DNA of 64,000 bases. Origin: Amphiscolops sp. MND2022. Lineage: Eukaryota. The notes beneath the pieces were generated by a model. It worked only from the letters and a program-made list of their open reading frames with translations, was not told where the DNA came from and made no database searches. Made by a program: the position numbers and the translations under genes. Shown here piece after piece: positions 6,412-60,106 of this stretch. The first letter of the stretch is position 1. Each line of letters begins with the position of its first letter. The DNA lies in assembly GCA_964187785.1 (NCBI GenBank), contig OZ076409.1, positions 17,300,001-17,364,000 on the forward strand, in the 5' to 3' direction.

Positions 6412-9400
6412 GGAGTGTTTGTGCAGTTCGTGGCAGAGGACAGTCCGGCTGCGTTCGGAGGAATGAAGTTCGGGGATCAGATTTTGTCGATTAACGACGA
6501 ACTCATCGCCGGATACTCTGCTGACAAAGTGCACAAGTTGCTCAAGAAAGCGGAACCCAACAACATTCGACTCGCTGTCCGAGACAGGTATCTTTGTTAA
6601 CATCTCTCATTCACAAGTTTCTTCTATCATGTAGCAAAATATGCTAAAATATATGTACTCATTGAATCAGCATCAGTATCATATGGAGAAAATTTTCTGT
6701 TCGAAATTAGTCGAGCTTTTCTGTTTAAAGGATCTTCCAATTCGCTGTTTTATCTCTCCCGAATTTCAAAAGCCAGACGGTGTATTTCTTTTTCTGTTCC
6801 AGACCGTTCGAGAGGATCATAACAGTGACAAAGGACTCGACTGGTCTCACTGGCTTCGGCTTCCAGGATGGGCGAGTGGTCAGTATCGTGAAGGACTCGA
6901 GCGCGGCCAGAAACGGCATCGTGACTGACCACCAAGTGGTGGAGATCAACGGCAGAAATGTGATCGGACTGAAGGACAAGCAAATTTGCAAGTTCATCGA
7001 AGAAGGCGGTGACGTCATCACTGTCACGCTCATGCCTTCTCTAATCTACGATCACATGATCAAAAAGTCAGTAGCAGCCCTATTCTATCCCTTGTTTTTA
7101 GTCGGCGCTTCATGAAGTGAAACGCGACTATTATAGTGACTTTTCTTTTTTTTTTTTTTTTTTTTTCAATCCACACGAACTGACCAAAATAGTTCTTAAA
7201 AGTTCTACAAAATATTATTGGTCCAAAATGCACTATTTGGTCTAGCGAACTGAACCAAAAAGGTTTTTCCTGTTTTTCCGCGTAACAAACCATACCGGGC
7301 GAGACCAAAGACTCCCCCTTTCATTTTTTTCGGCACTGCGAGACTTTTTTTCCGAAAAAAAATTTTTTCCCCAAAGGGTCCCCCTGCATTTTTTTGATGT
7401 TTTGCGACAGAATGGATGTTGAAAAATCCCAAAGGGTCCCCCCTTTCAGTTTTTTTCGGCATTGTGAGATTTTTTCCCGAAAATGAAAATTTTTGTTTTC
7501 TTCAATTTTTTCATGTTTTGCGACAGAATGGATGTTGAAAAACCTCAAAGGGTCCTCCCTTTCAGTTTTTCGGCATTGTGAGACTTTAGCGCGCCAGGGG
7601 CTCGCGCTAGCGAGCCCCGGCGCGCCACTCGGTCCATTTTTTTTGAGTATGTAATTTTTTCGAAAAATTTTTTTTCAAAAAATTTCGATTTTCGAGTACT
7701 GTAAAAGAGTACTTGACACTTGGAAGTCGTTTTGCTATTTTTGAGCCTTGGATATGGCGCCGACTTGGGCCGGTCCCGGCTTGTTTCAAATAAAAGTCGC
7801 GGCTCCTACTATTGGTTTCGTTGACACTTTGCGGCTTTTAATTTTTGGGACTCGGAAAAAAATTCAACTGCTTGTGCACTCTTACCTCTACCGATCTTTC
7901 AATGAAAATTTCGATTTTCTCAAAAACTGTCCATATTATTTTTAGTCGGCGCCTTTTCCCTTAAGGAAAAAAGCCCGACTCTTACAGTGAGTAGTTTTTT
8001 TTTTTTGTTTTTTTCAGTTGACAATCTCACTCTGAGTGGTCCACTTTTCTTACAATTCTGCAATTCTGCGCAGAAGGCAAACTTTACTCCAAAGGGTCCC
8101 CCTTTCAGTTTTTACTTTTTCAAGGAAACATACACAACCGGACGTGCCCAAAGGGTCCCCCCTTTGGATTTTTTTCGGCATTTTGCGACTTAAAAAATAC
8201 TTTTTTTCGAAAAAAATTTCAAAAATAATTTTTTTGAAAAATTTTTTTTTCCAAATTTTTACAATAGTTGTTCCTTGAATATTTTTGAGCCTGAGATATG
8301 GCGCCGACTTGGGACGTTCCCGTCTTGTTATTTCTGCGATAGCAGGAATATTATTGAAACCTCAACATTTCCACTTTTTTTTCAGAAAAATCTTTGTCGT
8401 GATACTGAAACAATCAGAAATTTTGTTCGGTAGTGAGTATAAGCATGAGATATAAATTTCTCAAGCTGCCGACAACAATTCGTTTCTCGTGCGATGGAAC
8501 GAGCGAGTGGTATTTATGCTTTCGTACGCCGAGTGATTGAGATGAAGCGAACGAGTGTTAATTATTCGTACGCCGAGTTCATGAAATGAAGTGAATGAGT
8601 GTAAATTATTCGTTCGCCGAGAGCTTCCCCTGCATTTAAATGCGAATGTGAAACTTCGTCTACGCTTAGTAGTTATATTTGCTGTAGTCCGAGAGGAATT
8701 AAAGATAGTGATTAATTGTGCGCTAAGTAGTGATTAAACAGGAGTGTATTGGTATTCCAGATGATTCTATTATTGAAAATGAAAGATTAAAGCAGAAATA
8801 ATACTGAGCCCCGGAGGGGCCCATTTTTAAAATAAATTTTAGCAGTCATTCTACACGCAAAGGTGCTCCTGTGTGCGCAATGACATCAAAGTCGTCTTTT
8901 TGGTATCTGAGAAAGATAGCCAAAGTTTGTCCGAAATTTATCAAAAAAGGCCGTTTTTGGACACAAAAACTCTCCATACGATTCGAACAATTTTTTTTTA
9001 AATCATCATGCGCCATATTAGGGTCCTTTGTGTTCAATGATTTCAAAATCGTATGACTAGGATCTGAGAATCATAGCCAAAATTAATCCAAAAATGATCA
9101 AATGACTAAGTACACTTTTTGTTTTTCTATAGTTTAAATCCGTTTCCGACTCCTTTGCCGCACATGCGGCTCTGGTTGAGGTTGTTTCTAAAATTTTTCG
9201 CCCATAATAGTGCCCATATTTAGCTTTTTTTGCAGTAGACCAAGCTGTGAGTTTGAGAGTACCTTAGTTATTCTAGGAAAAGCAACTTGAGGCAAATCTT
9301 ACAATCTATTTCTCGAACACGGCGGTGATTTTTGAAAAAATGTTAAAGATTTTTATCCAGTTTACAAATATGTTTGTTTGAAAAATATGCGATGAAAATT

Positions 9401-11963: not shown

Positions 11964-23078
<11,115 letters not shown>

Positions 23079-23274: not shown

Positions 23275-24848
23275 TTTTTAGTCAGCGCTTTCGATAGAAA
23301 ACGCAGACCATAGCAGTAGCTTTAAACTGCGAACCAACTGATTCTTTAAATTTCCTTATCGCCTGCCTCTTGTCCTGTCTAGTGGTTGGCGCGTGTGTCG
23401 GTTCATGGGCTGGGAAGCAGGAGTTCATCTGTTCGAATCCTGTGCTGGTCTAAAAATTTTTACGTTTTCATAGTTGACTTCGTTGACCTTTGGGTTTTTC
23501 GGCACTGTGCGACTTTTCTGGGAAAAAAACTTTCATTCACCAAAGAGTTCATTGATTTTTTTGATGTTTTCAGCGAGGAAAGTATTTTATCCGAAAGGGA
23601 TTCCCTTTGTTTTCGGCAGTGTGTCACTTTTATCGAATTTTTTTCAAATTTGGGATTTCTGATGTTTTTCAGTACTGTGAAGTTGATCAGAGTGTCTGCA
23701 AGATTGTCGTTTTCTGAAAGCATTTTCAAAAGGCTGCTTTTTTTAGTTGACGAATTTTTTAAATTTGACTTTTAATCACTCTGGAAGAATCAATCTGTTT
23801 TTTAGTTCGAAAAAAATGCACGAGTCTTACAGTGGCTAGTTTTTTTTCGTCAGTTCAACGCGATCGTTTCACTTTTTTGTTCATTTGTTCAACATCATCA
23901 ACTTTAACTTAGGACCTCCAAAACATACTCGAAACGCAAGAACCTCGTCCAAAACAAAAACATCGACAACCAGAACCTCGAAAACATAGGACCCCCCCCC
24001 CTTGGTGTTTTTAGTCGGCGTTTTCGAAGAAAATCCCGACTCTTACAGTGGCTACTTTTTTCTCGTCAGTTCAACGCGATCGGTCCACTTTTTGTTCATT
24101 TGTTCAACATCATCAACTTTAGCTACGGACCTCCAAAACATACTCGAACCGCCAGAACCTCATCCAAAACAAAAACATCGACGTCCAGAACCTCGATAAC
24201 ATAGGATCCCCCCTTTGGTGTTTTTCACTCGGATTTTTTTTCGGCACTATGCGACTTTTTTTGAAGCTTTTTGGATTCCACCAAAGGGTCTCCCCTTCAA
24301 TTTCTTAAATATTGTGCAACACAATGGATGTCAAAAAATCCCAAAAGGTCCCCCCTTTCCCCATTTTCGGCACTGTGACACTGTTCAAAGATCTCATTTT
24401 AAAATTTTTGGAAATTTATTTAATGTCTCCAAAATGTCCCCTTCAATTTTTTTGATATTTTGCGACCAACTGGAATTTCACAAAGCCCAAAGGGTCCCTC
24501 CCCCCTTTTTGCACATGACGAAGTCAATATGCATTGCAGTCCAGCTAAGTAAGTTTTTTTCCACTATAGTCAACTTCATAATGAGCGCCTTCTAGAAAAA
24601 AGCCAAAACCCCAGAGAGATTCGAACCTGCAACCTCCCGATTGCACGGCATAAGTGTTGACCACTGTGCCATAGGGACGTTATTGAACAAAGTTGAACTG
24701 TTGAATATATACGCATGCGATTAAATAATATATATACGCATATTAAAATAATCGATGTTTTCGTCATGTGTTGCGAAGCACCGCTTCGCCTCTGTGTACA
24801 ATTTTGAGCCTTAGATATAGCGCCGACTTTGGCCGTTCCTGGCTTGTT
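23275..24848 (+). mobile_element. Cluster of family A HINE-like elements (three 5' ends at ~23275, ~23800, ~24008; one 3' end at 24848)
   Basis: 5'-end motifs ttttagtc(a/g)gcg...(c/g)act..acagtggc. A ~210-bp tandem duplication (about 23800-24010 and 24010-24225). 3' gcgccgactttggccgttcctggcttgtt. tRNA-like segments at ~23360-23450 (+) and 24609-24678 (-). Confidence 0.75.
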
Positions 24849-25684: not shown

Positions 25685-27457
25685 ATGATGGCTAGACAAA
25701 GCCCTGAGTTCACATTCACAGTTCGTTTTGACAGCGAAGTGTTCTATAGCCTGTTGGCTTCTCATTTAACTTCTGATAAGAAAATAACATCGTTTGGAAC
25801 CAATGACTTTGAAAAATCAGCTCAATTTGCCGACTGGTGCGATGAATTTGATATCGTTGATCACAAAAGAGGAAAACGAATAGGATCGATATCAATGAAA
25901 ACAGTAGATTCTGTGCCTCGTGATAATGAGTCTTTGGATGACATGCAGCCTTGTCAGTCTGATTCTGACGTCAATAATGAAAACGGCTTCGATTGCATTA
26001 AGACCAGTGTATTGACCTTATCGTGTTTTTAACTCAAAATTTTATCTCAACCCCTTGGATTTTATGTCAAACGAGGAATTTTGATCAAAAATTTAGGTCA
26101 ACGAAAAACCTCGAAGCCATGTTACGTATGCATTTCAACGAAGAATTTGTTCGATTTGGCACTGCGACTTTTCTGGGGAAATCCTTTCATTCACCAGAGA
26201 GTCTCCCGTTGATTTTCAGCGAGGAAAAAGCGTTTTGCTAGCCAAAAGGACTCCCTTTCCGTTTTTCGGCACTGTGCCACTTTAGTTCGGGTTTTCTGAT
26301 GTTTTTCGGTACTGTGATCAGTGTTTCAAACTCTAGTAGCAGCAGTGAAACGCTGTATTCAATATTTGGAAATTAACTTTATTGAGCCACGAATTTCAAC
26401 ACGCCCTATTTGATCGGGTTAATTTTCGTTGCCATTCAGTTCATTTTGAACCTTTTTTGATTTGTGAAATTAGGCAAATGCACTGATACAGACACCGAAT
26501 TACAATGAGACGTCAGAAAAACAACAACAGATTCTTACGAATGAGACCATCGATGAAAGTAACAGGTTTGCCCTCTTTGTGGACTACGGGCCTTCTGCCT
26601 CGAAGAATATTGGCGGCGTTGAACAAACGCCCGACACTCAGATGGAAACTAAATGCGTCCTACCAGTTCAGGTTTTGCCTCCCTCAAACCATATCATTGT
26701 TGCAAATGATTCTCAAATGAATGGTGCTCTTATTTCGCAAAATTTACAACCTGCTGACGTGCCTAATCTGAACCAGTTCCATCAACATCAAATGACGTCA
26801 CTCGATCATGCCTCTGCCCCGTCTGAAAAATCCACCCATTTGACAGCTTTTTACGAGAGCGAAGCTCAAAATGTTCTGAATAACTTGCATTCTAATAATA
26901 AAAACACTAAAACCAAAAGACACCATCCTTACTCTCCGAGCTACAAAAGCGCAGTTAGCAATGATTTGGCTTCTCAAAACAATCAGATGGATCAGAAGCT
27001 TGCCTATCGATGCAAAGATTGCAACCACGTCAGTAAAAGTTCGAAAATGTTGAAAAAGCATATCTATCATTCGCATATCCAAGCCACTTTATTCAACTGT
27101 GCTATGTGTGAATACGCAGCCACCCAAAACTGTGATTTGAGCTATCATTATGTCTCTGTTCATAAACTCGACATAGATACTGTCGCCTCTTTAATCAGGA
27201 GTTCTACTCGAGAACGAGAAAAGCATTCGTTTCCAGGAACCCAGCCGACCATAGCTGTATCTATCTCCCAAGATTCACGGAAACCATCGATATCTCAACC
27301 CAATTCTAGTGTTCAAGAACGCGGGTCTTCGGAATTGACAGAATATGTACCTTCAATAGCCTCTGCTATGCCTCTGACGAAAAACCCAGTGTTCGACGTG
27401 GTGAACACTTACGGCAGTCTAAGTGCTAATCAAGAGCCAGGAGCATCGTCTTCATGA
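25685..27457 (+). CDS. C2H2 zinc-finger protein (two fingers) with an unrecognised N-terminal domain
   Basis: Exons 25685-26008 and 26474-27457 (phase 0, GT-AG). Fingers YRCKDCNHVSKSSKMLKKHIYHSH and FNCAMCEYAATQNCDLSYHYVSVH. Exon 1 resembles exon 1 of the gene at 50943. Confidence 0.8.
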
Positions 27458-28177: not shown

Positions 28178-30067
28178 ATGGACAAAACTACGGAACAGAA
28201 ATTGTACAACTTGGCGGACAAGCTCCGTGCGCTGAGTATACAATGCACGAGCATGAACCCTGTGGGTAACAGTGGGCACCCGACCACATGTGCGAGCTGT
28301 GCCGAAATTGTGTCGGTGCTGTTTTTCCACCACATGAAGTACAACAAGGTCGAGAAACGGGATCCAAGCAGCGATCGATTCATCCTTTCGAAGGGTCATG
28401 CTGCGCCTATCCTGTATGCCGCCTGGGTGCTTGTTGACGACGCTCTTGCCAACGGTGGAAAACTGAAGCTCAGGGAAATGGGTTCTCACCAAACTGAGCT
28501 TGTCAACCATCTGAGAGAAACAGGGCATAAATTTGAGGGTCACCCGATTCCGAAGTTGGACTTTGTGGATGTTGCGACTGGCTCTCTGGGTCAAGGTTTG
28601 GGTTGTGGAGCCGGTATGGCCTATGTTGGGAAGTTTTTGGACAAAGCTTCCTACAAGGTTTTCTGTCTTCTTGGAGATGGAGAAACTGCCGAAGGTGCTG
28701 TGTACGAAGCTATGGCTTTCGCAGGGCATTACAAACTAAACAACTTAGTCGCTTTTGTCGACCTTAACCGATTGGGTCAGAGCCAGGCTACTATGTACCA
28801 ACACGATGTGGAACTGGTTGGAAAGAGGTGGGAATCCTTTGGATGGGATGTATCTATTGTCGATGGTCATGATGTCGTCCAAATTAATGACGCACTGAAT
28901 AAGTCTTCGGATAAACCATCTGTTCTGATTTGCAAAACATTCAAAGGAAAAGGATTCGAGGGTATTGAAGACAAGGACAACTGGCATGGGAAACCTCTGA
29001 GTGACCCAAGCAAGTTTGTTAACGCCTTGTTGGCAAAACTTCCTGAAGGAGACTTCGATGTTCCTTCCACCCCGGAACCCATGGATTCGGCTCCTTCGGT
29101 CAGCTTGGCAAATATTGATTTCTCCAAGTTCCCCATTCCTGAAGGAACCGCTAAAATGTCAACTAGAAAAGCGTATGGGATCAGTCTAGCTAGTCTGAAC
29201 AACGACAGAGTTGTTGCTTTGGATGCTGATGTGAAAAACTCAACCTTCTCAATTGATTTCATGAAAGTGCACCCCGAACGATTCGTGGAATGTTTCATCG
29301 CTGAACAGAATTTGGTCGGTGCCGCGATGGGAATGGCTTGCCGAGATAGGACAGTCGCTTTTGCAAGCACTTTTGCGGCCTTTTTCAGCCGTGCTTACGA
29401 TCACATTAGAATGGGTGCCATCTCTCTCACTAACGTCAATCTTGTGGGTAGCCACTGCGGCGTTTCGATTGGACCTGACGGACCCAGTCAAATGGCCCTG
29501 GAAGATCTGGCCATGTTCCGAGCCATTCCCAACTGCTCTGTGTTTTACCCGTCTGATGCTATTTCCATGGCAAATGCTGTCAAAATTGCGGCTAATACCA
29601 AGGGAATGTGTTTCATCCGAACCACTCGTGAAGATACAGCTCTTCTGTATCCCGTGTCTCAGAGTTTTGAAGCTGGTAAGAGCTACGTTTTGAAACAAAG
29701 TGCTTCTGACAAGTGCTTGGTCATCGCAGCTGGTATCACAATGCATGAAGCTATCAAAGCCCATGAGAAGCTTGTGGCTGAGGGGATCAATGTTAGACTG
29801 ATGGATTTGTTCTGCCTGAAGCCTCTGGACAAAAATGGAATCTTGGCTGCTGCCAAGCAATGTGGGAATAAGATTATCACTGTTGAAGATCATTATCCCG
29901 AGGGAGGCATCGGGGAGGCTGTTTCGGCCGCCCTCTCTGAGGAAACAGGAATTGTTGTGAAACGTTTGGCTGTCAGAGAGGTGCCATGCAGCGGAAAACC
30001 AGCTGAACTCATGGATAAATATAACATCAACAGTCGAGCAATTATTGAAGCTGTCAAGTCTTTGTAA
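28178..30067 (+). CDS. TKT: Transketolase, animal type, single coding exon (629 aa)
   Basis: Uninterrupted ORF with SGHPTTC, DRFILSKGHAAPILYA, DVATGSLGQGLG, GDGE (TPP binding), DNWHGKP, ECFIAEQN, SHCGVSIGPDGPSQMALED, TVEDHYPEGGIGEAV. AATAAA at 30251. Confidence 0.97.
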   Translation: MDKTTEQKLYNLADKLRALSIQCTSMNPVGNSGHPTTCASCAEIVSVLFFHHMKYNKVEKRDPSSDRFILSKGHAAPILYAAWVLVDDALANGGKLKLREMGSHQTELVNHLRETGHKFEGHPIPKLDFVDVATGSLGQGLGCGAGMAYVGKFLDKASYKVFCLLGDGETAEGAVYEAMAFAGHYKLNNLVAFVDLNRLGQSQATMYQHDVELVGKRWESFGWDVSIVDGHDVVQINDALNKSSDKPSVLICKTFKGKGFEGIEDKDNWHGKPLSDPSKFVNALLAKLPEGDFDVPSTPEPMDSAPSVSLANIDFSKFPIPEGTAKMSTRKAYGISLASLNNDRVVALDADVKNSTFSIDFMKVHPERFVECFIAEQNLVGAAMGMACRDRTVAFASTFAAFFSRAYDHIRMGAISLTNVNLVGSHCGVSIGPDGPSQMALEDLAMFRAIPNCSVFYPSDAISMANAVKIAANTKGMCFIRTTREDTALLYPVSQSFEAGKSYVLKQSASDKCLVIAAGITMHEAIKAHEKLVAEGINVRLMDLFCLKPLDKNGILAAAKQCGNKIITVEDHYPEGGIGEAVSAALSEETGIVVKRLAVREVPCSGKPAELMDKYNINSRAIIEAVKSL

Positions 30068-31454
30068 TGAGATCCAGTTGAAGATCAAACTAAACAAAAA
30101 CGGCGATTCTGTATGGACCAGTAAACTGCACTGCACAGACAAGTAGCTGAAATTGTATTGTGATGTTAAAACTGTATAAATGATGAAACTTTCACTTGAT
30201 GACTGTTGAGACTTATGATTGTGATGCAGGTATGACAGTGATGTATAGTCAATAAAAATTATTTCATTCCAGTCCTAATTGACTTACAAATTTGTGATTT
30301 TTCCGAAAAGGCAATCTCAGAAAGTACAATTATAAGCTTCATTATTTGAAAACATCAGCGGCTCGTATGTTTTATTCAGTCAACTAAAATGTTTCAATGA
30401 ACTCATCAAAAAATTATTTTGCCATTATTAACAATTGTGTTGGTCTCTATATTCTGTGGTAAAAGGTTTTTGGGCTAGAAAATTGCAGTGTGAGTTAATC
30501 TGCTGTCCAGTAAAATAATTCCAGAGTTTCTGCATCGGAATTGTTGAAAGCCATTGATGTGAAAACTATGATAGATATTTTTTATTATGGAGTCAATAGT
30601 AGTAAAGCCTCCATGCCTTTTTACTCGAAATGTTCGCAATCCAAGAGACATTGCAGCAATTTCTTGCAACTTCGATGTAGTTGATCTTAAACGTTCAAAA
30701 TTCAAGAATGGAATTCAGTTGCATAAAACAGCCAAGTACAATGTCTCGAAAGGTCTTGCAAGTTAGCAATTTGTCAAGTGTCAAGTATGGATTTGTCAAG
30801 AATTGAATCTAGTTTACAAAGGTCTGTTCTGAATTTTTTGAAAAACCCATGCTTTAATTGCTGACATTTTTGACATCTTTGGGTTTTTTCGGTTGTATGT
30901 GACTTTTTTTCTGAATTTTTTACACGAGCCCTCTTTCAATTTTTAGCAGAAACAAGGCGTTTTGCGATCATAGTGAGCCCCTTTAGAGTTTTTCGGCCTT
31001 ATGCGACTTCGTAAAATTGTTTTCTCACAATTTTTGGGTTCTTGAAGTTTTCTGTGGGAGAAAACCATTTTCCAAGCCTTTGGTGACATCTTCGGTTATT
31101 CATCGGTCTTTTGGAACCGGTGAGAGTTTCTGCAATACCTGTTGAAAAGACCTGATTTTTCGGCACTGTGCATCTTTTTCAAAAAGAAAACATTTTGTCA
31201 AAGGGTACCCCCTTTATTTTTAGTCGGCGCGTTTTCTTTTTAAGGAAAAATGCCCGACTATAGCAGTGACATTTTTTAGTCGGTGCTTTATCCTTTTAAG
31301 GAAAAATGCCCGACTATAGCAGTGACCTTTTTTTCTTCAGACTACAATCCTCACACTGATCGGTCCACTTTTTAGTAACAATCCTGAAACCAACTAAGGC
31401 CAAGTCCGGCCCAGGCAAACTTGCAAACTTAGTCCAAAGGGTCCCCCCTTTCAT

Positions 31455-32087
31455 TTTTAGTCGGCGCTTCATGAAGTGAAACGCGACTATTATAGTGACT
31501 CTTTTTTTCTATCCACACGAACTGACCAAAATAGTTCTTAAAAGTTCTACAAAATATTATGGTGTCAAATTGCACCATTTGACCTAGCGAACTGGACCAA
31601 AATGGTTTTACCTGTTTTTCCGCGTAACATACCATACCGCGCGAGACCAAAGAGTCCCCCCTTTCAATTTTTTTCGGCACTGCGAGACATTTTTTTTCGA
31701 AATTTTTTTCTCCTCAAAGGGCCCCCTGCATTTTTTTGATGTTTTGCGACAGAATGGATGTTGGAAAATCCCAAAGGGTTCCTCCTTTCAGTTTTTTTCG
31801 GCATTGTGAGATTTTTTCCCGAAAATAAAAAAAAATTTTCTTCAATTTTTTCATGTTTTGCGACAGAATGGATGTTGAAAAACCTCAAAGGGTCCCCCCT
31901 TTCAGTTTTTCGGCATTGTGAGACGTTAGCGCGCCGCTCGGTCCATTTTTTTAGTTTAATTTTTTCAAAAAAAAATTTCGAAAAATTTTTGATTTTCGAC
32001 TACTGTAAAAGAATACTTGACACTTGGAAGTTTTTTGCTATTTTTGAGCCTTGGATATGGCGCCGACTTGGACCGCTCCCGGCTTGT
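31455..32087 (+). mobile_element. HINE-like element, family A, nested; close copy of 7095-7785
   Basis: Same 5' ttttagtcggcgcttcatgaagtgaaacgcgact and 3' gcgccgacttggaccgctcccggcttgtt. Preceded by two further 5' ends at ~31218 and ~31273. Confidence 0.85.
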
Positions 32088-32199
32088 TTTTATTTAAGAC
32101 AGACTCGAAGCGACGAACGTTAACGTTCAGTATCTTCAACTCAACGAATACCCCGGAAACGCATCTAAGTTATTCCAAAGTGTCCCCCCTTTGGCTTTT

Positions 32200-35100
32200 T
32201 ACTTTTTACTTTTTCAAGGAAACCCACAAAACCGGTCCCCCCTTTGGATTTTTTTCGGCACTGTGCGACTTTTTTTCAAAATTTTTTTAATGTCCCCAAA
32301 GGGTCCCCCTTCGAGTTTTTTGATATTTTGCAACTGAATGTGTGTTAATAAATCTAGAAGGGTATACCCTTTTACATTTTTCGGCAGTATGGGACTTTTT
32401 CCAAAAAAAAAGAATTTCATTTTTTCCAAATTTCAATTTTGCGCTTTTTGAGCTTTAGATATGGCCCCCACTTTTTTCTTCAGACCACATCAATCACACT
32501 GATCGGTCCACTTTTTAGGAACATCGCTGAAACCACCTTAGGCCAAGTCCGGCCGAGGCAAACTTAGTGTAAAGGGTCCCCCTTTCATTTTTTACTTTTT
32601 TAACGTAAACTACAAAACCGGGCGAGACTAAAGGGTCCCCCCATTTGATTTGTTTTTGGCTTTGAGACTTCGAAAATTTCTTAATTATCTCCAAAGGGTC
32701 CCCCTTTGAATTTTTTGATATCTTGCAACAAAATGAAAGTTAAAAAATCCGAAATGGCTCCTTTCAGATTTTTTGGCACTATGCGACATTTTTCAAAGAA
32801 ATTTTTTGAAAAAATTCAAGTTTTATTCCAAGAAACATGTTTTGCGCTTTTTGAGCCTTAGACGTAGCGCCGACTTTAGACGTTCTCGTCTTGTTTAAAG
32901 AAGTGATGGCTCGGAAAAAGCGTTTTACGATCATAAGGTCTCCTTTTGGGTTATTCTATTCGGCACTATAAGACGTTGTTGGAAATTTTTGTGAAGGTTT
33001 TTTTTTCAAAACATGGCTTTTTCTGTGTCCAGTTCAAAGAAATATTTTCTAGTCTCAATCGGGTATTTTTGGCACTATGATAATCGAAAAGTTTCACAAT
33101 AGTTGGCCCTTGAATATTTCGAATATCTGCTTTTTTTGGTGGGCGCTTTTTGTTCAGCAAAAAATGCCCGACTCATACAGTGACCTTTTTCTTCAGACCA
33201 CAGACCTCACACTGAAAGGTTCACTTTTTACAGTAACTACTAAAACTATTGGAGCCAAGTCCGACTAGCGGAAACTTAGTGCAAAGGGTCCTCCCATTCT
33301 TTTTTTACTTTTTAAACGTGACCCACAAAACCGGTCCCCCCTTTGGATTTTTTTCGGCCTTGTGCGACTTTTTTTCAAAATTTTTTTAATGTCCCCAAAG
33401 GGTCCCCCCTTCGAGTTTTTTGATATTTTGCAACTGAATGTGTGTTAATAAATCTAGAAGGGTATACCCTTTTACATTTTTCGGCAGTATGGGACTTTTT
33501 CCAAAAAAAAGAATTTCATTTTTTCCAAATTTCAATTTTGCGCTTTTTGAGCTTTAGATATGGCCCCCACTTTTTTCTTCAGACCACATCAATCACACTG
33601 ATCGGTCCACTTTTTAGGAACATCGCTGAAACCACCTTAGGCCAAGTCCGGCCGAGGCAAACTTAGTGTAAAGGGTCCCCCTTTCATTTTTTACTTTTTT
33701 AACGTAAACTACAAAACCGGACGAGACTAAAGGGTCCCCCCATTTGATTTGTTTTTAGCTTTGAGACTTCGAAAGTTTCTTAATATCTCCAAAGGGTCCC
33801 CCTTTGAATTTTTTGATATCTTGCAACAAAATGAAAGTTAAAAAATCCGAAATGGCTCCTCTCAGATTTTTTGGCACTATGCGACATTTTTCAAAGAAAT
33901 TTTTTGAAAAAATTCAAGTTTTATTCCAAGAAACATGTTTTGCGCTTTTTGAGCCTTAGACGTAGCGCCGACTTTAGACGTTCTCGTCTTGTTTAAAGAA
34001 GTGATGGCTCGGAAAAAGCGTTTTACGATCATAGGGTCTCCTTTTGGGTTATTCTATTCGGCACTATAAGACGTTGTTGGAAATTTTTGTGAAGGTTTTT
34101 TTTCAAATCATGGCTTTTTCTGTGTCCAGTTCAAAGAAATATTTTCTAGTCTCAATCGGGTATTTTAGGCACTATGATAATCGAAAAGTTTCACAATAGT
34201 TGGCCCTTGAATATTTCGAATATCTGCTTTTTTTGGTGGGCGCTTTTTGTTCAGCAAAAAATGCCCGACTCATACAGTGACCTTTTTCTTCAGACCACAG
34301 ACCTCACACTGAAAGGTTCACTTTTTACAGTAACTACTAAAACTATTGGAGCCAAGTCCGACTAGCGGAAACTTAGTGCAAAGGGTCCTCCCATTCTTTT
34401 TTTACTTTTTAAACGTGACCCACAAAACCGGTCCCCCCTTTGGATTTTTTTCGGCCTTGTGCGACTTTTTTTCAAAATTTTTTTAATGTCCCCAAAGGGT
34501 CCCCCCTTCGAGTTTTTTGATATTTTGCAACTGAATGTGTGTTAATAAATCTAGAAGGGTATACCCTTTTACATTTTTCGGCAGTATGGGACTTTTTCCA
34601 AAAAAAAAGAATTTCATTTTTTCCAAATTTCAATTTTGCGCTTTTTGAGCTTTAGATATGGCCCCCACTTTTTTCTTCAGACCACATCAATCACACTGAT
34701 CGGTCCACTTTTTAGGAACATCGCTGAAACCACCTTAGGCCAAGTCCGGCCGAGGCAAACTTAGTGTAAAGGGTCCCCCTTTCATTTTTTACTTTTTTAA
34801 CGTAAACTACAAAACCGGACGAGACTAAAGGGTCCCCCCATTTGATTTGTTTTTGGCTTTGAGACTTCGAAAGTTTCTTAATATCTCCAAAGGGTCCCCC
34901 TTTGAATTTTTTGATATCTTGCAACAAAATGAAAGTTAAAAAATCCGAAATGGCTCCTCTCAGATTTTTTGGCACTATGCGACAATTTTCAAAGAAATTT
35001 TTTGAAAAAATTCAAGTTTTATTCCAAGAAACATGTTTTGCGCTTTTTGAGCCTTAGACGTAGCGCCGACTTTAGACGTTCTCGTCTTGTTTAAAGAAGT

Positions 35101-38100
35101 GATGGCTCGGAAAAAGCGTTTTACGATCATAGGGTCTCCTTTTGGGTTATTCTATTCGGCACTATAAGACGTTGTTGGAAATTTTTGTGAAGGTTTTTTT
35201 TCAAATCATGGCTTTTTCTGTGTCCAGTTCAAAGAAATATTTTCTAGTCTCAATCGGGTATTTTAGGCACTATGATAATCGAAAAGTTTCACAATAGTTG
35301 GCCCTTGAATATTTCGAATATCTGCTTTTTTTGGTGGGCGCTTTTTGTTCAGCAAAAAATGCCCGACTCATACAGTGACCTTTTTCTTCAGACCACAGAC
35401 CTCACACTGAAAGGTTCACTTTTTACAGTAACTACTAAAACTATTGGAGCCAAGTCCGACTAGCGGAAACTTAGTGCAAAGGGTCCTCCCATTCTTTTTT
35501 TTACTTTTTAAACGTGACCTACAAAACCGGACGAGACTGAAGGGTCCCCCCATTTGATTTGTTTTTGGCTTTGAGACTTCGAAAATTTCTTAATATCTCC
35601 AAAGGGGTCCCCCTTTGAGTTTTTTGATATGTTGCAACAAAATGAATGTTTAAAAATCCGAAATGGCCCCTTTCAGATGTTTCGGCACTATGCGACATTT
35701 TTCGAAAGAAATTTTTAAAAAATTCAAGTTTTATTCCAAGAAACATGTTTTGCGCTTTTTGAGCCTTAGATGTAGCGCCGACTTCAGACGTTCTCGTCTT
35801 GTTTAAAGAAGTGTTGGCTCGGAAAAAGCGTTTTGCGATCATAGGGTCTCCTTTTGGGTTATTCTATTCGGCACTATAAGACGTTGGAAAATTTTGTGAA
35901 GGTTTTTTTTTCAAAACATGGCTTTTTCTGTGTCCAGTTCAAAGAAGTATTTTCTAGTCTCAATCGGGTATTTTTGGCACTATGATAATCGAAAAGTTTC
36001 ACAAAAGTTGGCCCTTGAATATTTCAAATATCTGCTTTTTTGGTGGGCGCTTTTTGTTCAGCAAAAAATGCCCGACTCTTACCGTGACCTTTTTTCTTCA
36101 GACCACAGACCTCACACTGAAAGGTCCACTTTTTACACTTACTACTAAAACTACTGGAGCCAGGTCCGACTAGCGGAAACTTAGTGCAAAGGGTCCTCCC
36201 ATTCTTTTTTACTTTTTAAACGTGACCTACAAAACCGGACGAGACTAAAGGGTCCCCCCATTTGATTTGTTTTAGGCTCTGAGACTTCGAAAATTTCCTA
36301 ATATCTCCACAGGATCCCCCTTTGAGTTTTTTGATATCTTGCAACAAAATGAAAGTTAAAAAATCCGAAATGGCCCCTTTTAGATTTTTTGGCACTATGC
36401 GACATTTTTCGAAAGAAATTTTTAAAAAAATTCAAGTTTTATTCCAAGAAACATGTTTTGCGATTTTGAGCCTTAGATGTAGCGCCGACTTTAGACGTTC
36501 TCGTCTTGTTTAAAGAAGTGTTGGCTCGGAAAAAGCGTTTTGCGATCATAGGGTCTCCTTTTGGGTTATTCTATTCGGCACTATAAGACGTTGTTGGAAA
36601 TATTTGTGAAGGTTTTTTTTCAAAACATGGCTTTTTCTGTGTCCAGTTCAAAGAAGTATTTTCTAGTCTCAATCGGGTATTTTTGGCACTATGATAATCG
36701 AAAAGTTTCACAAAAGTTGGCCCTTGAATATTTCAAATATCTGCTTTTTTGGTGGGCGCTTTTTGTTCAGCAAAAAATGCCCGACTCTTACCGTGACCTT
36801 TTTTCTTCAGACCACAGACCTCACACTGAAAGGTCCACTTTTTACACTAACTACTAAAACTACTGGAGCCAAGTCCGACTAGCGGAAACTTAGTGCAAAG
36901 GGTCCTCCCATTCTTTTTTTACTTTTTAAACGTGACCTACAAAACCGGACGAGACTAAAGGGTCCCCCCATTTGATTTGTTTTTGGCTTTGAGACTTCGA
37001 AAATTTCCTAATATCTCCAAAGGGGCCCCCTTTGAGTTTTTTGATATCTTGCAACAAAATGAAAGTTAAAAAATCCGAAATGGCCCCTTTCAGATTTTTT
37101 GGCACTATGCGACATTTTTCGGAAGAAATTTTTTAAAAAATTCAAGTTTTATTCCAAGAAACATGTTTTGCGCTTTTTGAGCCTTAGATGTAGCGCCGAC
37201 TTTAGACGTTCTCGTCTTGTTTAAAGAAGTGTTGGCTCGGAAAAAGCGTTTTGCGATCATAGGGTCTCCTTTTGGGTTATTCTATTCGGCACTATAAGAC
37301 GTTGTTGGAAAATTTTGTGAAGGTTTTTTTTCAAAACATGGCTTTTTCTGTGTCCAGTTCAAAGAAGTATTTTCTAGTCTCAATCGGGTATTTTTGGCAC
37401 TATGATAATCGAAAAGTTTCACAAAAGTTGGCCCTTGAATATTTCAAATATCTGCTTTTTTTTGGTGGGCGCTTTTTGTTCAGCAAAAAATGCCCGACTC
37501 TTACCGTGACCTTTTTTCTTCAGACCACAGACCTCACACTGAAAGGTCCACTTTTTACACTAACTACTAAAACTACTGGAGCCAAGTCCGACTAGCGGAA
37601 ACTTAGTGCAAAGGGTCCTCCCATTCTTTTTTTTACTTTTTAAACGTGACCTACAAAACCGGACGAGACTAAAGGGTCCTCCCATTTGATTTGTTTTTGG
37701 CTTTGAGACTTCGAAAATTTCCTATCATCTCCAAAGGGCCCCCCTTTGAGTTTTTTGATATCTTGCAACAAAATGAAAGTTAAAAAATCCGAAATGGCCC
37801 CTTTCAGATTTTTTAGCACTATGCGACATTTTTCGGAAGAAATTTTTTAAAAAATTCAAGTTTTATTCCAAGAAACATGTTTTGCGCTTTTTGAGCCTTA
37901 GATGTAGCGCCGACTTTAGACGTTCTCGTCTTGTTTAAAGAAGTGTTGGCTCGGAAAAAGCGTTTTGCGATCATAGGGTCTCCTTTTGGGTTATTCTATT
38001 CGGCACTATAAGACGTTGTTTTAAAATTTTGTGAAGGTTTTTTTTCAAAACATGGCTTTTTCTGTGTCCAGTTCAAAGAAGTATTTTCTAGTCTCAATCG

Positions 38101-41100
38101 GGTATTTTTGGCACTATGATAATCGAAAAGTTTCACAAAAGTTGGCCCTTGAATATTTTAAATATCTGCTTTTTTTGGTGGGCGCTTTTTGTTCAGCAAA
38201 AAATGCCCGACTCTTACCGTGACCTTTTTTCTTCAGACCACAGACCTCACACTGAAAGGTCCACTTTTTACACTAACTACTAAAACTACTGGAGCCAAGT
38301 CCGACTAGCGGAAACTTAGTGCAAAGGGTCCTCCCATTCTTTTTTTACTTTTTAAACGTGACCTACAAAACCGGACGAGACTAAAGGGTCCCCCCATTTG
38401 ATTTGTTTTTGGCTTTGAGACTTCGAAAATTTCCTATCATCTCCAAAGGGCCCAACTTTGAGTTTTTTGATATCTTGCAACAAAATGAAAGTTAAAAAAT
38501 CCGAAATGGCCCCTTTCAGATTTTTTGGCACTATGCGACATTTTTCGGAAGAAATTTTTAAAAAAATTCAAGTTTTATTCCAAGAAACATGTTTTGCGCT
38601 TTTTGAGCCTTAGATGTAGCGCCGACTTTAGACGTTCTCGTCTTGTTTAAAGAAGTGTTGGCTCGGAAAAAGCGTTTTGCGATCATAGGGTCTCCTTTTG
38701 GGTTATTCTATTCGGCACTATAAGACGTTGTTGGAAAATTTTGTGAAGGTTTTTTTTCAAAACATGGCTTTTTCTGTGTCCAGTTCAAAGAAGTATTTTC
38801 TAGTCTCAATCGGGTATTTTTGGCACTATGATAATCGAAAAGTTTCACAAAAGTTGGCCCTTGAATATTTCAAATATCTGCTTTTTTTGGTGGGCGCTTT
38901 TTGTTCAGCAAAAAATGCCCGACTCTTACCGTGACCTTTTTTCTTCAGACCACAGACCTCACACTGAAAGGTCCACTTTTTACACTAACTACTAAAACTA
39001 CTGGAGCCAAGTCCGACTAGCGGAAACTTAGTGCAAAGGGTCCTCCCATTCTTTTTTTACTTTTTAAACGTGACCTACAAAACCGGACGAGACTAAAGGG
39101 TCCCCCCATTTGATTTGTTTTTGCCTTTGAGACTTCGAAAATTTCCTAATATCTCCAAAGGGCCCCCCTTTGAGTTTTTTGATATCTTGCAACAAAATGA
39201 AAGTTAAAAAATCCGAAATGGCCCCTTTCAGATTTTTTGGCACTATGCGACATTTTTTGAAAGAAATTTTTTAAAAAATTCAAGTTTTATTCCAAGAAAC
39301 ATGTTTTGCGCTTTTTGAGCCTTAGACGTAGCGCCGACTTTAGACGTTCTCGTCTTGTTTAAAGAAGTGATGGCTCGGAAAAAGCGTTTTACGATCATAG
39401 GGTCTCCTTTTGGGTTATTCTATTCGGCACTATAAGACGTTGTTGGAAATTTTTGTGAAGGTTTTTTTTTCAAAACATGGCTTTTTCTGTGTCCAGTTCA
39501 AAGAAATATTTTCTAGTCTCAATCGGGTATTTTTGGCACTATGATAATCGAAAAGTTTCACAATAGTTGGCCCTTGAATATTTCGAATATCTGCTTTTTT
39601 TGGTGGGCGCTTTTTGTTCAGCAAAAAATGCCCGACTCATACAGTGACCTTTTTCTTCAGACCACAGACCTCACACTGATCGGTCCATTTTTTAGGAACA
39701 TCGCTGAAACCACCTAAGGCCAAGTGCGGCCGAGGCAAACTTAGTGTAAAGAGTCTCCCTTTCATTTTTTACTTTTTTAACGTAAACTACAAAATCGGAC
39801 GAGACTAAAGGGACCCCCATTTGATTTGTTTTTGGCTTTGAGACTTCGAAAATTTCTTAATATCTCCAAAGTGTCCCCCTTTGAATTTTTTGATATCTTG
39901 CAACAAAATGAAAGTTAAAAAATCCGAAATGGCCCCTTTCAGATTTTTTGGCACTATGCGACATTTTTCGAAAGAAATTTTAAAAAAAATTCAAGTTTTA
40001 TTCCAAGAAACATGTTTTGCGCTTTTTGAGCCTGAGATGTAGCGCCGACTTTAGACGTTCTCGTCTTGTTTAAAGAAGTGTTGGCTTGGAAAAAGCGTTT
40101 TGCGATCTTAGGGTCTCCTTTTGGGTTATTCTATTCAGCACTATAAGACGTTGTTGGAAAATTTTCTGAAGGTTTCTTTCAAAACATGGCTTTTTCTGTG
40201 TCCAGTTCAAAGAAATATTTTTTAGTCCCAATCGGGTATTTTTGGCACTATGATAATGGGAAAGTTTCACAATGGTTGGCCCTTCAATATTCCAAGTATC
40301 TGCTCTTTTTAGTGGCCCGACTCTTACAGTGACCTTTTTCTTCAGATCGCAGACCTCACACTGATCGGTCCATTTTTTAGGAACATCGCTGAAACCACCT
40401 AAGGCCAAGTCCGGCCGAGGCAAACTTATTGTAAAGGGTCCCCCTTTCATTTTTTACTTTTTTAACGTAAACTACAAAACCGGACCAGACTAAAGGGTCC
40501 CCCCATTTGATTTGTTTTTGGCTCTGAGACTTCGAAAATTTCCTAATATCTCCACAGGATCCCCCTTTGAGTTTTTTGATATCTTGCAACAAAATGAAAG
40601 TTAAAAAATCCGAAATGGCCCCTTTCAGATTTTTTGGCACTATGCGACATTTTTGGAAAGAAATTTTAAAAAAATTCAAGTTTTATTCCAAGAAACATGT
40701 TTTGCGCTTTTTGAGCCTTAGATGTAGCGCCGACTTTAGACGTTCTCGTCTTGTTTAAAGAAGTGTTGGCTCGGAAAAAGCGTTTTGCGATCATAGGGTC
40801 TCCTTTTGGGTTATTCTATTCGGCACTATAAGACGTTGTTGGAAATATTTGTGAAGGTTTTTTTTCAAAACATGGCTTTTTCTGTGTCCAGTTCAAAGAA
40901 GTATTTTCTAGTCTCAATCGGGTATTTTTGGCACTATGATAATCGAAAAGTTTCACAAAAGTTGGCCCTTGAATATTTCAAATATCTGCTTTTTTTGGTG
41001 GGCGCTTTTTGTTCAGCAAAAAATGCCCGACTCTTACCGTGACCTTTTTTCTTCAGACCACAGACCTCACACTGAAAGGTCCACTTTTTACACTAACTAC

Positions 41101-42974
41101 TAAAACTACTGGAGCCAAGTCCGACTAGCGGAAACTTAGTGCAAAGGGTCCTCCCATTCTTTTTTTACTTTTTAAACGTGACCTACAAAACCGGACGAGA
41201 CTAAAGGGTCCCCCCATTTGATTTGTTTTTGGCTTTGAGACTTCGAAAATTTCCTAATATCTCCAAAGGGCCCCCTTTGAGTTTTTTGATATCTTGCAAC
41301 AAAATGAAAGTTAAAAAATCCGAAATGGCCCCTTTCAGATTTTTTGGCACTATGCGACATTTTTCGGAAGAAATTTTTAAAAAAATTCAAGTTTTATTCC
41401 AAGAAACATGTTTTGCGCTTTTTGAGCCTTAGATGTAGCGCCGACTTTAGACGTTCTCGTCTTGTTTAAAGAAGTGTTGGCTCGGAAAAAGCGTTTTGCG
41501 ATCATAGGGTCTCCTTTTGGGTTATTCTATTCGGCACTATAAGACGTTGTTGGAAAATTTTGTGAAGGTTTTTTTTTCAAAACATAGCCTTTTCTGTGTC
41601 CAGTTCAAAGAAGTATTTTCTAGTCTCAATCGGGTATTTTTGGCACTATGATAATCGGAAAGTTTTACAATGGTTGGCCCTTGAATATTCCAAATATCTG
41701 CTCTTTTTAGTGGCCCGACTCTTACAGTGACCTTTTTCTTCAGATCGCAGACCTCACACTGATCGGTCCATTTTTTAGGAACATCGCTGAAACCACCTAA
41801 GGCCAAGTCCGGCCGAGGCAAACTTATTGTAAAGGGTCCCCCTTTCATTTTTTACTTTTTTAACGTAAACTACAAAACCGGACGAGACTAAAGGGTCCCC
41901 CCATTTGATTTGTTTTTGGCTTCGAGACTTCGAAAATTTCCTAATATCTCCAAAGGGTCCCCCTTTGAATTTTTTGATATCTTGCAACAAAATGAAAGTT
42001 AAAAAATCCGAAATGGCCCCTTTCAGATTTTTTGGCACTACGCGACATTTTTCGAAAGAAATTTTTTAAAAAATTCAAGTTTTATTCCAAGAAACATGTT
42101 TTGCGCTTTTTGAGCCTTAGATGTAGCGCTGACTTTAGACGTTCTCGTCTTGTTTGAAGAAGTGTTGGCTCGGAAAAAGCGTTTTGCGATCATAGGGTCT
42201 CCTTTTGGGTTATTCTATTCGGCACTATAAGACGTTGGAAAATTTTGTGAAGGTTTTTTTTTCAAAACATGGCTTTTTCTGTGTCCAGTTCAAAGAAGTA
42301 TTTTCTAGTCTCAATCGGGTATTTTTGGCACTATGATAATCGAAAAGTTTCACAAAAGTTGGCCCTTGAATTTTTCAAATATCTGCTTTTTTTTGGTGGG
42401 CGCTTTTTGTTCAGCAAAAAATGCCCGACTCTTACCGTGACCTTTTTTCTTCAGACCACAGACCTCACACTGAAAGGTCCACTTTTTACACTAACTACTA
42501 AAACTACTGGAGCCAAGTCCGACTAGCGGAAACTTAGTGCAAAGGGTCCTCCCATTCTTTTTTTACTTTTTAAACGTGACCTACAAAACGGACGAGACTG
42601 AAGGCTCCCCCCATCTGATTTGGTTTTTGGCTTTGAGACTTCGAAAATTTCCTAATATCTCCCAAGGGTCCCCCTTTGAGTTTTTTGATATCTTGCAACA
42701 AAATGAATGTTAAAGAATCCGAAATGGCTCCTTTCAGATTTTTCGGCTTTATGAGACATTTTCCGAAAAAAATCTCTGGTGTTTTTCAAAAGAAACATTT
42801 TTGTTCCAAGTTGGGGAAAAAATGGTTTCCGAGTCTTATCGATCTTGAAAGGCACCCTTTGGGTGTCTCGAAACTTTTCTGAGCTTTTCATAAATAGGTC
42901 CTGGGCGTGTTTTAAAAACTTTGCGCTTTTTGAGCCTTAGATGTAGCGCCGACTTTAGACGTTCTCGTCTTGTT
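32200..42974 (+). repeat. Tandem array (satellite) of HINE-derived units of ~1098, ~712 and ~686 bp
   Basis: The family A 3' terminus gcgccgactttagacgttctcgtcttgtt (single-base variants at 35775 and 42126) recurs 14 times: 32867, 33965, 35063, 35775, 36482, 37193, 37907, 38619, 39331, 40042, 40727, 41438, 42126, 42946. Confidence 0.97.
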
Positions 42975-50942: not shown

Positions 50943-53054
50943 ATGTCTTCTCTGGATATGACGTCATCGTTTAGTTTGTCTCTCAACCTGGACAGGTCTT
51001 TTTTCACGTTTCTGCAAGGCCAGCAGCAGAAAGTGAACGATGGAGACAACAGCATGGACCTCTCTCGCTCCACTGGCCAGAACGGAACCTCCAAGCACAC
51101 GTTTTGTGAGGAGTTCCTGGTAGTCAGCAAGCTCATGGATAAGTGCATTGGGTCCATCAGTATCAAGATCAACAACATCGAAGCAACGTTAGTATACTTG
51201 TTTTGTCGCCACATTTTGTACGAAGTGTGCCCGACTATTGCAGTGACTAGTTTTTGAAAGTTTTTCCATAAGACTACAAAATGTATGCGACTTTTCAACA
51301 GAGTTTGTTCACGGCGCCAGTAGTTGGAATGCGCGCTTCGTAAGCAGACAACCGTCGGTTCAATGCCTGTGTACTCAATATCTTTGTTTGTGAATTTTGA
51401 CGTTCCCCTAATGTCCCCCTTTTGTATTTTTGGCACAGGGCGACTTTCAGAAAACCTTTTTCATCCGCTTTTTTGATGTTATCGTTAAGAGAAGAGTTTT
51501 TGGAGGACACAGGTTGCCCCTTCGGATACTTTTACCACTCTCAAAGTTATGAAAATTTCCTCTGAGGTTTTTAATGAGACTTTGCACGTTTTTAGCTTCA
51601 AGCGAGGCGCCGACTCCAGACAGTCCCGTCTTGTTCTTAACGTTTGATGTTTTTTGGGAATCGTTTTTTTTCAAGTTGAATCTGTTCTTCACTACTACAT
51701 GTCTTGATTGCTTTCAACACGTGATATAAGTATCATCGAAAACTTATGAATTTGAACTTTCTTCAGCTCGAAGAGCCATACAACCGTGCCAACTAATCAT
51801 CAAGCAAACTGTGTGGAAAAACATAGATTTTCTTCTCAGCCAACTCGCAATAACTGTGTCACAACTCAACCCATGATGCAATCACAGCCATATTCCAGTG
51901 CCACATTCACCCCATGTGCTCACGTCTCACAAAATTCTAGCATGATGAGGTCAACGGCCAATTTATCACAAGTTTCTCATTCGTACCCACCCGTCAAGAC
52001 TGCAACGCTGGGCGTGCCAATCACCAACAGGCCGCCTCTGCTTCCTAATGGGAACGGATCTTCCTTTGTTATGGAAAACACATCTACTAATCGTTACTGG
52101 AGCTCTCTGGGAACCCTCTCAAGTCCCCTCATCAGTGGTATTAAAGTTGAAAACGGAGGTGTGCAGAATCATTATGCAGGTGCTTACACTCCATCTACTC
52201 CTATAAGCACTCCTAAAGCTGAGCCTGGGCAATCTAATGGACCTTTCTTCACCTCTCCGGGGGCATTCAATAGAAGCCCAGGAAACAAAAACAACTTGAA
52301 TGGAAGGTGTCATTGGCCATATACGGCTTCTATACGCGGGGGTTTCATGAGTAGAGGTTCAAGGGGCAATTACGTGAAACGAGGACGTGGCTCGGCATTT
52401 GGAAAAGTTAATGGGGTCGAAGTTCCGAGAAATCCTTTCGGAGCAAACATAAGGAGCCGGGTTAGAGTTGCCAAAGTACCTCAACCCAGGGCCAACATCC
52501 CATGCACCTTATGCGACTTTTCTACCGCTTATTCCCACAGTCTAGATGTCCACATGAAATCTGTTCATTCAATGGAGAGACCGTTTTCTTGTGTTCTTTG
52601 TGACTACACTTGCAAGCTAAAAGGCAATCTTAAGAAGCATTACGTTGGAACCCACAAACTGGAAGTAGAACCGGCTGAGTCCTTACTGAAGCACAGTTCC
52701 AACAGTGAAAATGCGGTCCCGTCTCAAGTCAATGTTTTCAACGCCAAAACCATGGAAAACACGCCGATTCAGCCAGCCAATGAAGTTTCAGACGCTAAGC
52801 AACCAGAAGAACACGAGCCATCTCTAAGCGAGATCTATGACGCATACAACTCAGCTGAGTTTTCCGACTTCCTCGTCAACGACCAGGAGACTGCAGCAAC
52901 GGGTGCTACTCTGCAACATATGGCCACAACTGCACCAAACGAGGATCTGACCCTGGAAGCAACCGACTCGTCTCAGGAGATGTTGCCGGCCGACCTCTCT
53001 GTCCAAACTCTAAACTCAAACTTTGGCACTCTTGCTACTGTGCTCTCACCTTAA
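50943..53054 (+). CDS. C2H2 zinc-finger protein (two fingers), paralog of the gene at 25685
   Basis: Exons 50943-51187 and 51767-53054 (phase 2, GT-AG). Fingers CTLCDFSTAYSHSLDVHMKSVH and CVLCDYTCKLKGNLKKHYVGTH joined by an SMERPF linker. RG-rich stretch upstream of the fingers. Confidence 0.85.
51198..51635 (+). mobile_element. Family A HINE-like variant in the zinc-finger intron
   Basis: 5' ttttgtcgccac...gcccgactattgcagtgac and 3' gcgccgactccagacagtcccgtcttgtt. Interior similar to 19102-19573. Confidence 0.75.
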
Positions 53055-55890: not shown

Positions 55891-56398
55891 TGAAATTACA
55901 AACGTTAGAAGTATTAATTTTGCCATCAAAATTGAAAGAGAAAATGGCAAAATAATCAATGTGACGTTTGGTTGTTTTGAATTTCTTTGAAAGGCATTTT
56001 CTTTATAAAATCCAAATGCTACAGGAAAAAAGACATTTTAAAAAAGTTGTTGAAATGTTTGATTGTCACGAGATTCTGTGAATTTAGACATTTTTTATGT
56101 CTAAGAAAGATTCTATTTTTTGCTTCACTGATAAGGCCAAATGAACTTTTAGATTGGAGCCGAATCATGGCGTAGGAGCTGAGAATTTTATTTTCAACCT
56201 CTCAAATTTTTGGACTTAATTCCGTTTTTATTGTTTGTTAACGCCGGTGAAAACCGTTGCCAGAATTTTCACTGTGAAATATCCGTATTTCATCGTGGTT
56301 GTGCATGATGAACATCTCCATTGTTGTTAATTTTCTATTGGTAGAAATTGGTTCTAATCAACGTTGTTTTTACCTGTTTTCATATTTTCTTCAGGTTT

Positions 56399-59300: not shown

Positions 59301-60106
59301 CTATATCTAACTCTCCAATTATTGCTATTTGAAGGTGCCATAACGGACTATACTGGAGAGAGGGCCACTTTCTGTGCTATAATGTTGACCGCTTCTGTTC
59401 CGTGTCTCTATCTGTACTTGCTGTATGGAAATGTATTTCCCATGTCTCTCCTCTTTGTGAGTGGAATCTTCGTCAATGGACCTTATGGGCTCATCACAAC
59501 TGCGGTTGCTGCTGATTTGGGTTGGTCATATTCTGGTTTACTCGAAGGATTATGGGCATATTTGTGAAAGCAAGGGCACGAGAAAGGCACAATTATATAT
59601 CAAAGTAGGACCGGGGAAAAGAGCTACTCAGCTCGCCTTGCGGTTTAATTGAAACTTTTTTGAACCATGGTAATCTATGAAGTTGCAGGAATCATTTACA
59701 AAACACTCAGAAGTATCGAGAAAGCCAAGTAGAAGTTTGCGACATGAAGCAATAAAGGTTCTTACCTTCTGATCAAGTAGATAGACTTTGAAATCCGTAA
59801 CATTGGCTAGGCTATGTGCTCTAGGTTTTGCTTCATGAAATGTATGATTGTTTGTGACTCCCCAAAACGTATGTTTCAGGAACGCACCCCAGCATAGGTG
59901 GCAGCTCACGTGCGTTGGCCACTGTGTCTGCCATAATAGACGGCACCGGGTCCATCGGGGCTGCTCTGGGACCTCTGCTGGCCGGGGTCATCAGCAAGTT
60001 CGCTGGCTGGGGCAGTGTCATATACGTACTCATAGGGGCCGAAGTACTCGCCCTCATATTCCTATTCAGTCAGATCTCACAGAGAAGATGTAATAATAAC
60101 AGATAA
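56399..60106 (+). CDS. SLC37A2: SLC37-family sugar-phosphate/phosphate exchanger (SLC37A1/A2-like, MFS)
   Basis: Exons 56399-57500, 58801-59073, 59335-59520, 59880-60106, phase-consistent. Motifs HISRKPISVVK, GWAPF, FAYAIGMFFSG, WPAVV..NWYGKGNRGLLMGIWTSHTSLGNILGS, IPGVVEYS.CLFF.KLVSYTFLYWLP, NGPYGLITTAVAADLGTH, ALATVSAIIDGTGSIGAALGP. A1 versus A2 orthology is not resolvable here. Confidence 0.92.

Follow-up and report, generated by a model that had tools for sequence, protein, structure and literature searches.

A small N-terminal domain, apparently undescribed, in an expanded family of two-finger C2H2 zinc-finger genes

The N-terminal segment shared by two zinc-finger genes, ZF1 and ZF2, is apparently an undescribed, lineage-restricted domain associated with C2H2 fingers. 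It occurs at no fewer than 96 loci on 11 contigs of genome G000, is kept in a related species, is predicted to fold with confidence and has no library match, in agreement with the initial annotation, which had proposed a new finger-associated module of this kind. That annotation knew the module from two paralogs; the sharing is real, but its extent was understated. On balance, the segment is best read as a copy of a domain of 45–50 residues that opens about 100 two-finger C2H2 genes and probably works as a self-pairing module.

Gene structure of ZF1 and ZF2

The window, that is the whole stretch of 64,000 nucleotides analysed, spans positions 17300001–17364000 of contig C1 in G000, a genome of 1.07 Gb. 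It contains only two C2H2 finger pairs (27011–27163 and 52503–52655), with one module upstream of each. The peptides by which the segment was first recognized are encoded in frame on the plus strand as annotated, PEFTF at 25703–25717 and IGSIS at 25880–25894 in ZF1, SSFSL at 50964–50978 and IGSIS at 51147–51161 in ZF2. Both genes encode C2H2 proteins with two fingers of the form C-x2-C-x12-H-x3-5-H, for which matches to the Pfam zf-C2H2 clan lie below the curated cut-offs (best E of 3e-5 for ZF2 and 0.06 for ZF1). For the N-terminal segments of ZF1 and ZF2, Pfam returned nothing at E ≤ 10.

The putative ZF1 splice, 26008/26492, is the best of eight donor/acceptor pairs when compared with P0001, the orthologue described below (964 vs 954 and lower), while the putative ZF2 splice, 51187/51767, keeps the frame open. 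Acceptor-like AG dinucleotides at 25677–78 and 50888–89 point to a further exon upstream in ZF1 and ZF2 alike. The repeat fragment within the ZF1 intron (window 26155–26317) has 21 other matches in G000, one of them at 23498–23680, 2.7 kb upstream.

Table 1. Features of ZF1 and ZF2 (window positions)
Feature	Position	Strand	Description
ZF1 N-terminal module	25688..25906	+	Predicted strand at residues 7-14, helix 16-28, disordered loop, hairpin 53-58 and 63-73
ZF1 block 1 (strand and helix)	25706..25771	+	Residues 5-28; 20/24 identical to P0001
ZF1 variable loop	25772..25831	+	4/20 identical to P0001; pLDDT <50 at residues 39-49
ZF1 block 2 (hairpin, family-invariant Gly66)	25832..25900	+	20/23 identical to P0001
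ZF1 putative phase-0 intron	26009..26491	+	GTATTG...CAG; alternative acceptor ends at 26473; dispersed-repeat fragment inside
ZF1 finger exon	26492..27457	+	Low-complexity linker, C2H2 fingers 27011-27076 and 27098-27163, family tail helix, stop
ZF2 N-terminal module	50943..51170	+	Begins at first Met following an in-frame TGA
ZF2 putative phase-2 intron	51188..51766	+	GTTAGT...TTCTTCAG; frame open to stop with it
ZF2 finger exon	51767..53054	+	C2H2 fingers 52503-52568 and 52590-52655, family tail

Other genes in the window encode a PDZ protein (6729–7112), a RecQ-like helicase with a DEAD match (14854–23075), which we take to be BLM-like, and an MFS transporter (56345–59564). A single-frame transketolase (28181–30064) begins 720 bases after ZF1; the solved structures that match it best, 4kxu, 3ooy and 3mos, are human. 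Together with the spliced genes, this transketolase suggests that G000 belongs to an animal. A long-period tandem repeat with units near 712 and 1098 bases (30957–42974) lies between the ZF1–transketolase block and ZF2.

A gene family in the genome

Iterated profile searches of the 693 kb of loci retrieved placed the module at 83 sites, mostly in tandem two-finger C2H2 genes. The rise to 96 at the final count comes from additions accepted by eye, with scores from about 10 bits upward, and the total is a lower bound, since the loci read amount to about 1.5 Mb of 1067 Mb, with overlaps counted in. Searches of G000 with finger pairs gave 59, 39, 54 and 64 matches, many in tandem on contigs C2, C3, C4, C5, C7, C10 and C12, and the N-terminal frames at these loci open with a similar pattern.

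The general class of accessory domain is reflected in what was found: the module is N-terminal, lies in the same polypeptide as the fingers and is common to an expanded family. It starts at Met in 69 of the 83 loci, and its own open reading frame holds two fingers in 48, one in three, none in 32 and never more than two. The layout with a separate first coding exon, initially compared with KRAB, therefore describes ZF1 and ZF2 but not most of the family, where 48 of 83 frames hold module and both fingers together. A short basic KR motif follows the module in 64/83 by a loose pattern counted without a control. Fingers lie within 1.5 kb downstream of 56 of the 60 strong module matches, a link inflated by the fact that most loci were fetched through finger matches. 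Searches that began with the module gave five new loci; in three of them a finger exon follows, at distances of 2.4, 9 and 11 kb, and in the other two, C13:37961049 and C7:157300, there is none within 12 kb. No module was found in 15 stretches around other C2H2 genes, multi-finger genes included.

Other architectures were met in the same genome. A core-type module exon at C13:37961049 (L238:1492–1641) has, 20 kb downstream on the same strand, a frame that encodes a Brinker DNA-binding domain (C13:37981330, L253:1330–2172; E 4.6e-7, passing the cut-off), and the module may also serve this helix-turn-helix (Brinker-type) factor. After the module exon at C7:157300 comes a large mobile element on the minus strand (C7:138001–157000, L247–L248), presumably Polinton-like by the motifs of its integrase, ATPase and polymerase-like frames. 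L064:3363–6098 also has a long frame of similar, finger-led type.

A two-finger gene at C8:57364–57366 kb (L219:1454–3148, minus) has the same finger type and a different N-terminus with no Pfam match below E 0.16, which by eye forms a helix and two strands and which we take to recall a MADS-like dimer unit. About two dozen BTB matches were seen in long open frames, many of 860–900 residues, on many contigs (L205, L206, L208, L215 and others), and the BTB family of G000 is apparently large, expanded and intron-poor.

Conservation and divergence

P0001, the ZF1 orthologue from a relative (421 residues, E 4e-24), is colinear with the joined ZF1 and contains the module and both fingers in a single protein. 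It is likely encoded by one unbroken frame, because other family entries in that collection span Met to the first stop and not introns. The contrast in identity between the two blocks and the loop (Table 1) indicates that selection keeps exactly the two blocks outlined in the initial annotation; in the next 25 residues past the module identity is 12%. Seven of the eight contact residues of ZF1, read from the alignment, are the same in P0001. One such entry, P0006, has 66 residues, as many as the unspliced frame at C4:24003329. In a second cross-species pair, P0023 and C5:24749038, identity is 70% overall and the module is kept, and no closer match was found in G000.

Among 13 paralogue pairs, dN/dS is 0.41 for the module, 0.33 for the linker and 0.22 for the fingers, which leaves the module no better conserved than the linker. 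Within the module it is 0.33 at the hydrophobic and Gly positions and 0.48 on the surface, the fastest class; within the fingers, in a coarse test pooling the 13 pairs, it is 0.34 at contact positions and 0.16 at the others. The median pairwise identity of modules is 15%. Taken with the orthologue identity, these classes point to a module constrained between orthologues and drifting fast between paralogues. Recognition helices are varied, with 31 signatures in 46 first fingers and 30 in 44 last fingers, and module similarity covaries weakly with finger similarity (Mantel rho 0.19, 3/2000).

The most constrained part of the single-frame members (dN/dS 0.14) is a short segment about 22 residues before finger 1, which could extend that finger structurally. 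Pairs at C12:33420001–33428525 (L074) diverge in a mosaic manner, with module dN 0.009 and finger dN 0.34 in one pair and 0.23 and 0.07 in another, which suggests gene conversion or shuffling between module and fingers.

Predicted fold

The module was initially drawn at about 75 residues; its conserved unit spans about 45–50, and the loop is longer in ZF1 and ZF2 than in most relatives. Of the initial motif, the hydrophobic spacing and one Gly hold throughout the family, whereas W/F-C-D/E-E-F and IGSIS do not. In the alignment of 66 modules the Gly is invariant (66/66) and the first strand always has hydrophobic residues at four alternating positions (66/66); a short helix and a hairpin come next. 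The mean length is 49 residues, with a mean of 1.7 Cys and an acidic mean net charge of −3.8.

The fold is predicted to be strand-helix-strand-strand. The AlphaFold model of a compact member (pLDDT 87) contains the helix, the hairpin and a first strand that is confident (84–88) yet unpaired. In the ZF1 model (pLDDT 75) a disordered loop separates the helix from the last two strands, and the first strand pairs intramolecularly. The pTM of both models is 0.52–0.53. The second strand of the module has adjacent hydrophobic positions, and these, together with the confident but unpaired first strand, hint at a partner chain; the ZF1 model, with its first strand satisfied internally, makes a monomer possible.

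Proposed function

The module is likely a finger-associated interaction domain that would dimerize with itself. The two fingers probably bind DNA, as suggested by the Arg that 32 of 46 first fingers have at +6, and alone they would read too few bases, so that pairing of modules would supply the specificity. Two short two-finger units, once paired, would then read DNA jointly. The dimer would form through the first strand, with the unpaired strand as the interface, and the fast surface change between paralogues may set the choice of partner in a ZAD-like manner. More tentatively, the module could represent an independently invented accessory class, a 45-residue strand-swapped dimer of unsolved fold whose surface would hold a partner code for at least 100 two-finger factors, the pairs giving four-finger specificities and one copy possibly working with a Brinker-type helix-turn-helix protein.

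It is rather unlikely that the module is instead a monomeric effector, recruiting a co-repressor or another chromatin partner in the manner of KRAB and probably FiNZ, in a family that silences transposons or repeats. Such a role would suit the N-terminal position, the tandem expansion, the varied recognition helices, the acidic charge (FiNZ is Glu-rich in the available text of its description, 10.1101/2022.11.29.518450) and the contact codons, which change at about double the rate of the remaining finger codons. A shared co-factor, however, should conserve the surface, which is the fastest class here in modules of such low median identity. KRAB and FiNZ proteins also have long arrays where these have two fingers, the pooled contact-site dN/dS is below 1 and shows no excess of change, and the ZF1 contact residues are nearly fixed across species. 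The link to control of the repeat load that had been suggested at first is likewise not supported, given the two-fingered members, the contact dN/dS and the contacts shared with the orthologue. Self-pairing remains the preferred reading.

Comparison with known accessory domains and folds

ZAD binds zinc through two CxxC pairs. The module resembles ZAD (zf-AD, PF07776) in being N-terminal, fast-evolving and lineage-expanded, and differs from it in having CxxC in 0/66 members, about 49 residues against 75 positions in the Pfam model, and two fingers in place of an array. PF07776 is not among the 12 Pfam families matched by any of the 66 members at E ≤ 0.5, and was not returned for ZF1 or ZF2 at E ≤ 10. 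As far as the available text goes, ZADs homodimerize selectively, with a paralogue-specific choice, despite low sequence similarity (PMC7913770).

Like KRAB and SCAN in vertebrate zinc-finger proteins, the module is an accessory N-terminal domain in clustered genes. KRAB and SCAN are accessory N-terminal domains that often have their own exon and belong to clustered genes, and both are helical, unlike the module, which is modelled with two or three strands and one helix and shows no Pfam match to them in 66 members. BTB/POZ is an N-terminal α/β interaction domain often accompanied by few fingers or a helix-turn-helix. The module shares with it (PF00651; ZBTB, tramtrack-type) the N-terminal position, the α/β make-up and the few fingers, but BTB has about 110 positions with conserved His and Leu, and HHalign of the module against 11 BTB pieces from G000 gave a probability of 0.2% (E 0.37). 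By the Pfam searches, the lack of CxxC and this comparison the segment is not KRAB, ZAD, SCAN or BTB, none of which had been recognized in it initially either.

FiNZ of cyprinids is described, in the text available, as a highly conserved domain of 28 residues with its own exon; it precedes long arrays of positively selected fingers and has been linked to the repression of transposons (10.1101/2022.11.29.518450). The module is likewise lineage-limited, acidic, N-terminal, dissimilar to known domains and part of a tandemly expanded family, but its low identity, the lack of an intron in most genes, the two fingers and the absence of a pooled sign of positive selection set it apart. Long arrays of the KRAB or FiNZ type were not found in the frames of the 83 loci, nor positively selected contacts in the coarse test pooled over 13 pairs.

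In the SHS2 fold three strands form a sheet beneath a single helix. SHS2 consists of strand-helix-strand-strand and often mediates protein contacts, according to the available text (PMC5311493). The ZF1 model has the same element order, compared by order alone, and the compact model leaves the first strand unpaired. It is improbable, all the same, that the module is a known small fold (SHS2-type, one with a ribbon-helix-helix-like start, or a BTB fragment) much diverged and recruited to fingers, and so not new. The shared order with SHS2 would favour this, as would the strand-then-helix hydrophobic spacing, which resembles that of ribbon-helix-helix proteins, and the ease with which short diverged domains evade sequence search, the members themselves scoring only about 25–45 bits on their own profile. 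Against it, Foldseek searches of PDB with two models and of BFVD with one gave no match at E ≤ 0.001, the best query TM among the matches listed being 0.32, 0.38 and 0.44 (a dodecin stood 17th, at TM 0.23). No Pfam family was matched by more than one of the 66 members at E ≤ 0.5, and the HHalign result stands against a BTB fragment. In flies, single C2H2 fingers that carry an extra strand dimerize (PMC12774644, in the text available); these are zinc-bound units, which the module is not.

Searched with the profile, 1.84 billion proteins gave only members of this family and four repeat artefacts, yet the two known cross-species relatives were missed. The literature search, with supplementary domain tables outside its scope, found no description of such a domain; in the available text on an acoel genome, which would bear on this family if G000 is of that lineage, 73 C2H2 genes are counted and no accessory domain is mentioned (PMC6451197).

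Place of ZF1 and ZF2 in the family

ZF2 is a clear member of the family, and ZF1 is very probably a divergent one. Their modules align better than shuffled controls, with a local score of 51 vs 24.7 ± 4.7 (reached by 4/20000) and a global score reached by 20/20000, figures that apply to a pair preselected in the initial annotation and are uncorrected for that choice. A three-block profile of 41 other paralogues, with ZF1 and ZF2 left out but its columns and 0–45 spacer set when both were already known, ranked ZF2 first (27.2) and ZF1 second (20.0) of 1036 open reading frames in the window, in the register of the initial annotation. These scores were reached in 1/2000 shuffles for ZF2 and 9/2000 for ZF1, the leave-one-out range being 7.3–39.5; on P0001 the best match of this profile places block 1 out of register.

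HHalign against a profile of 60 other members gave E 1.5e-5 for ZF2, 1e-3 for ZF1 and 0.67 for a control linker, although for ZF1 the hairpin alone was aligned, with a probability of 22%. In a plain HMM neither gene rises above noise (ZF1 third of 1652 at 8.9 bits, the best of the shuffled windows ranging from 7.7 to 15.3), and an HMM of the core subfamily (n=7) detects ZF2 (29.9 bits, where 30 shuffled windows reach 12.4 at most) but not ZF1. These two HMMs and the long branch of the ZF1 fingers would allow the ZF1 N-terminus to be a conserved segment of that gene alone, resembling ZF2 and the family by amphipathic-strand chance, but this is very improbable given its rank and register in the three-block profile, the HHalign contrast with the control, the position of its module at the first Met, as in the family, the same finger type and tail, and the exact coincidence of the blocks conserved in P0001 with the two blocks of the family.

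Significance

Vertebrates and insects have each linked an accessory domain (KRAB, SCAN, FiNZ, ZAD) to zinc-finger families that were expanding. The module is a further, apparently independent case that differs in build, being a tiny α/β module with two fingers only. It defines a transcription-factor family of about 100 genes, which Pfam scores poorly because even the fingers lie below the curated cut-offs. As a small soluble target, the module would allow dimerization to be tested against co-factor binding as the driver of such expansions.
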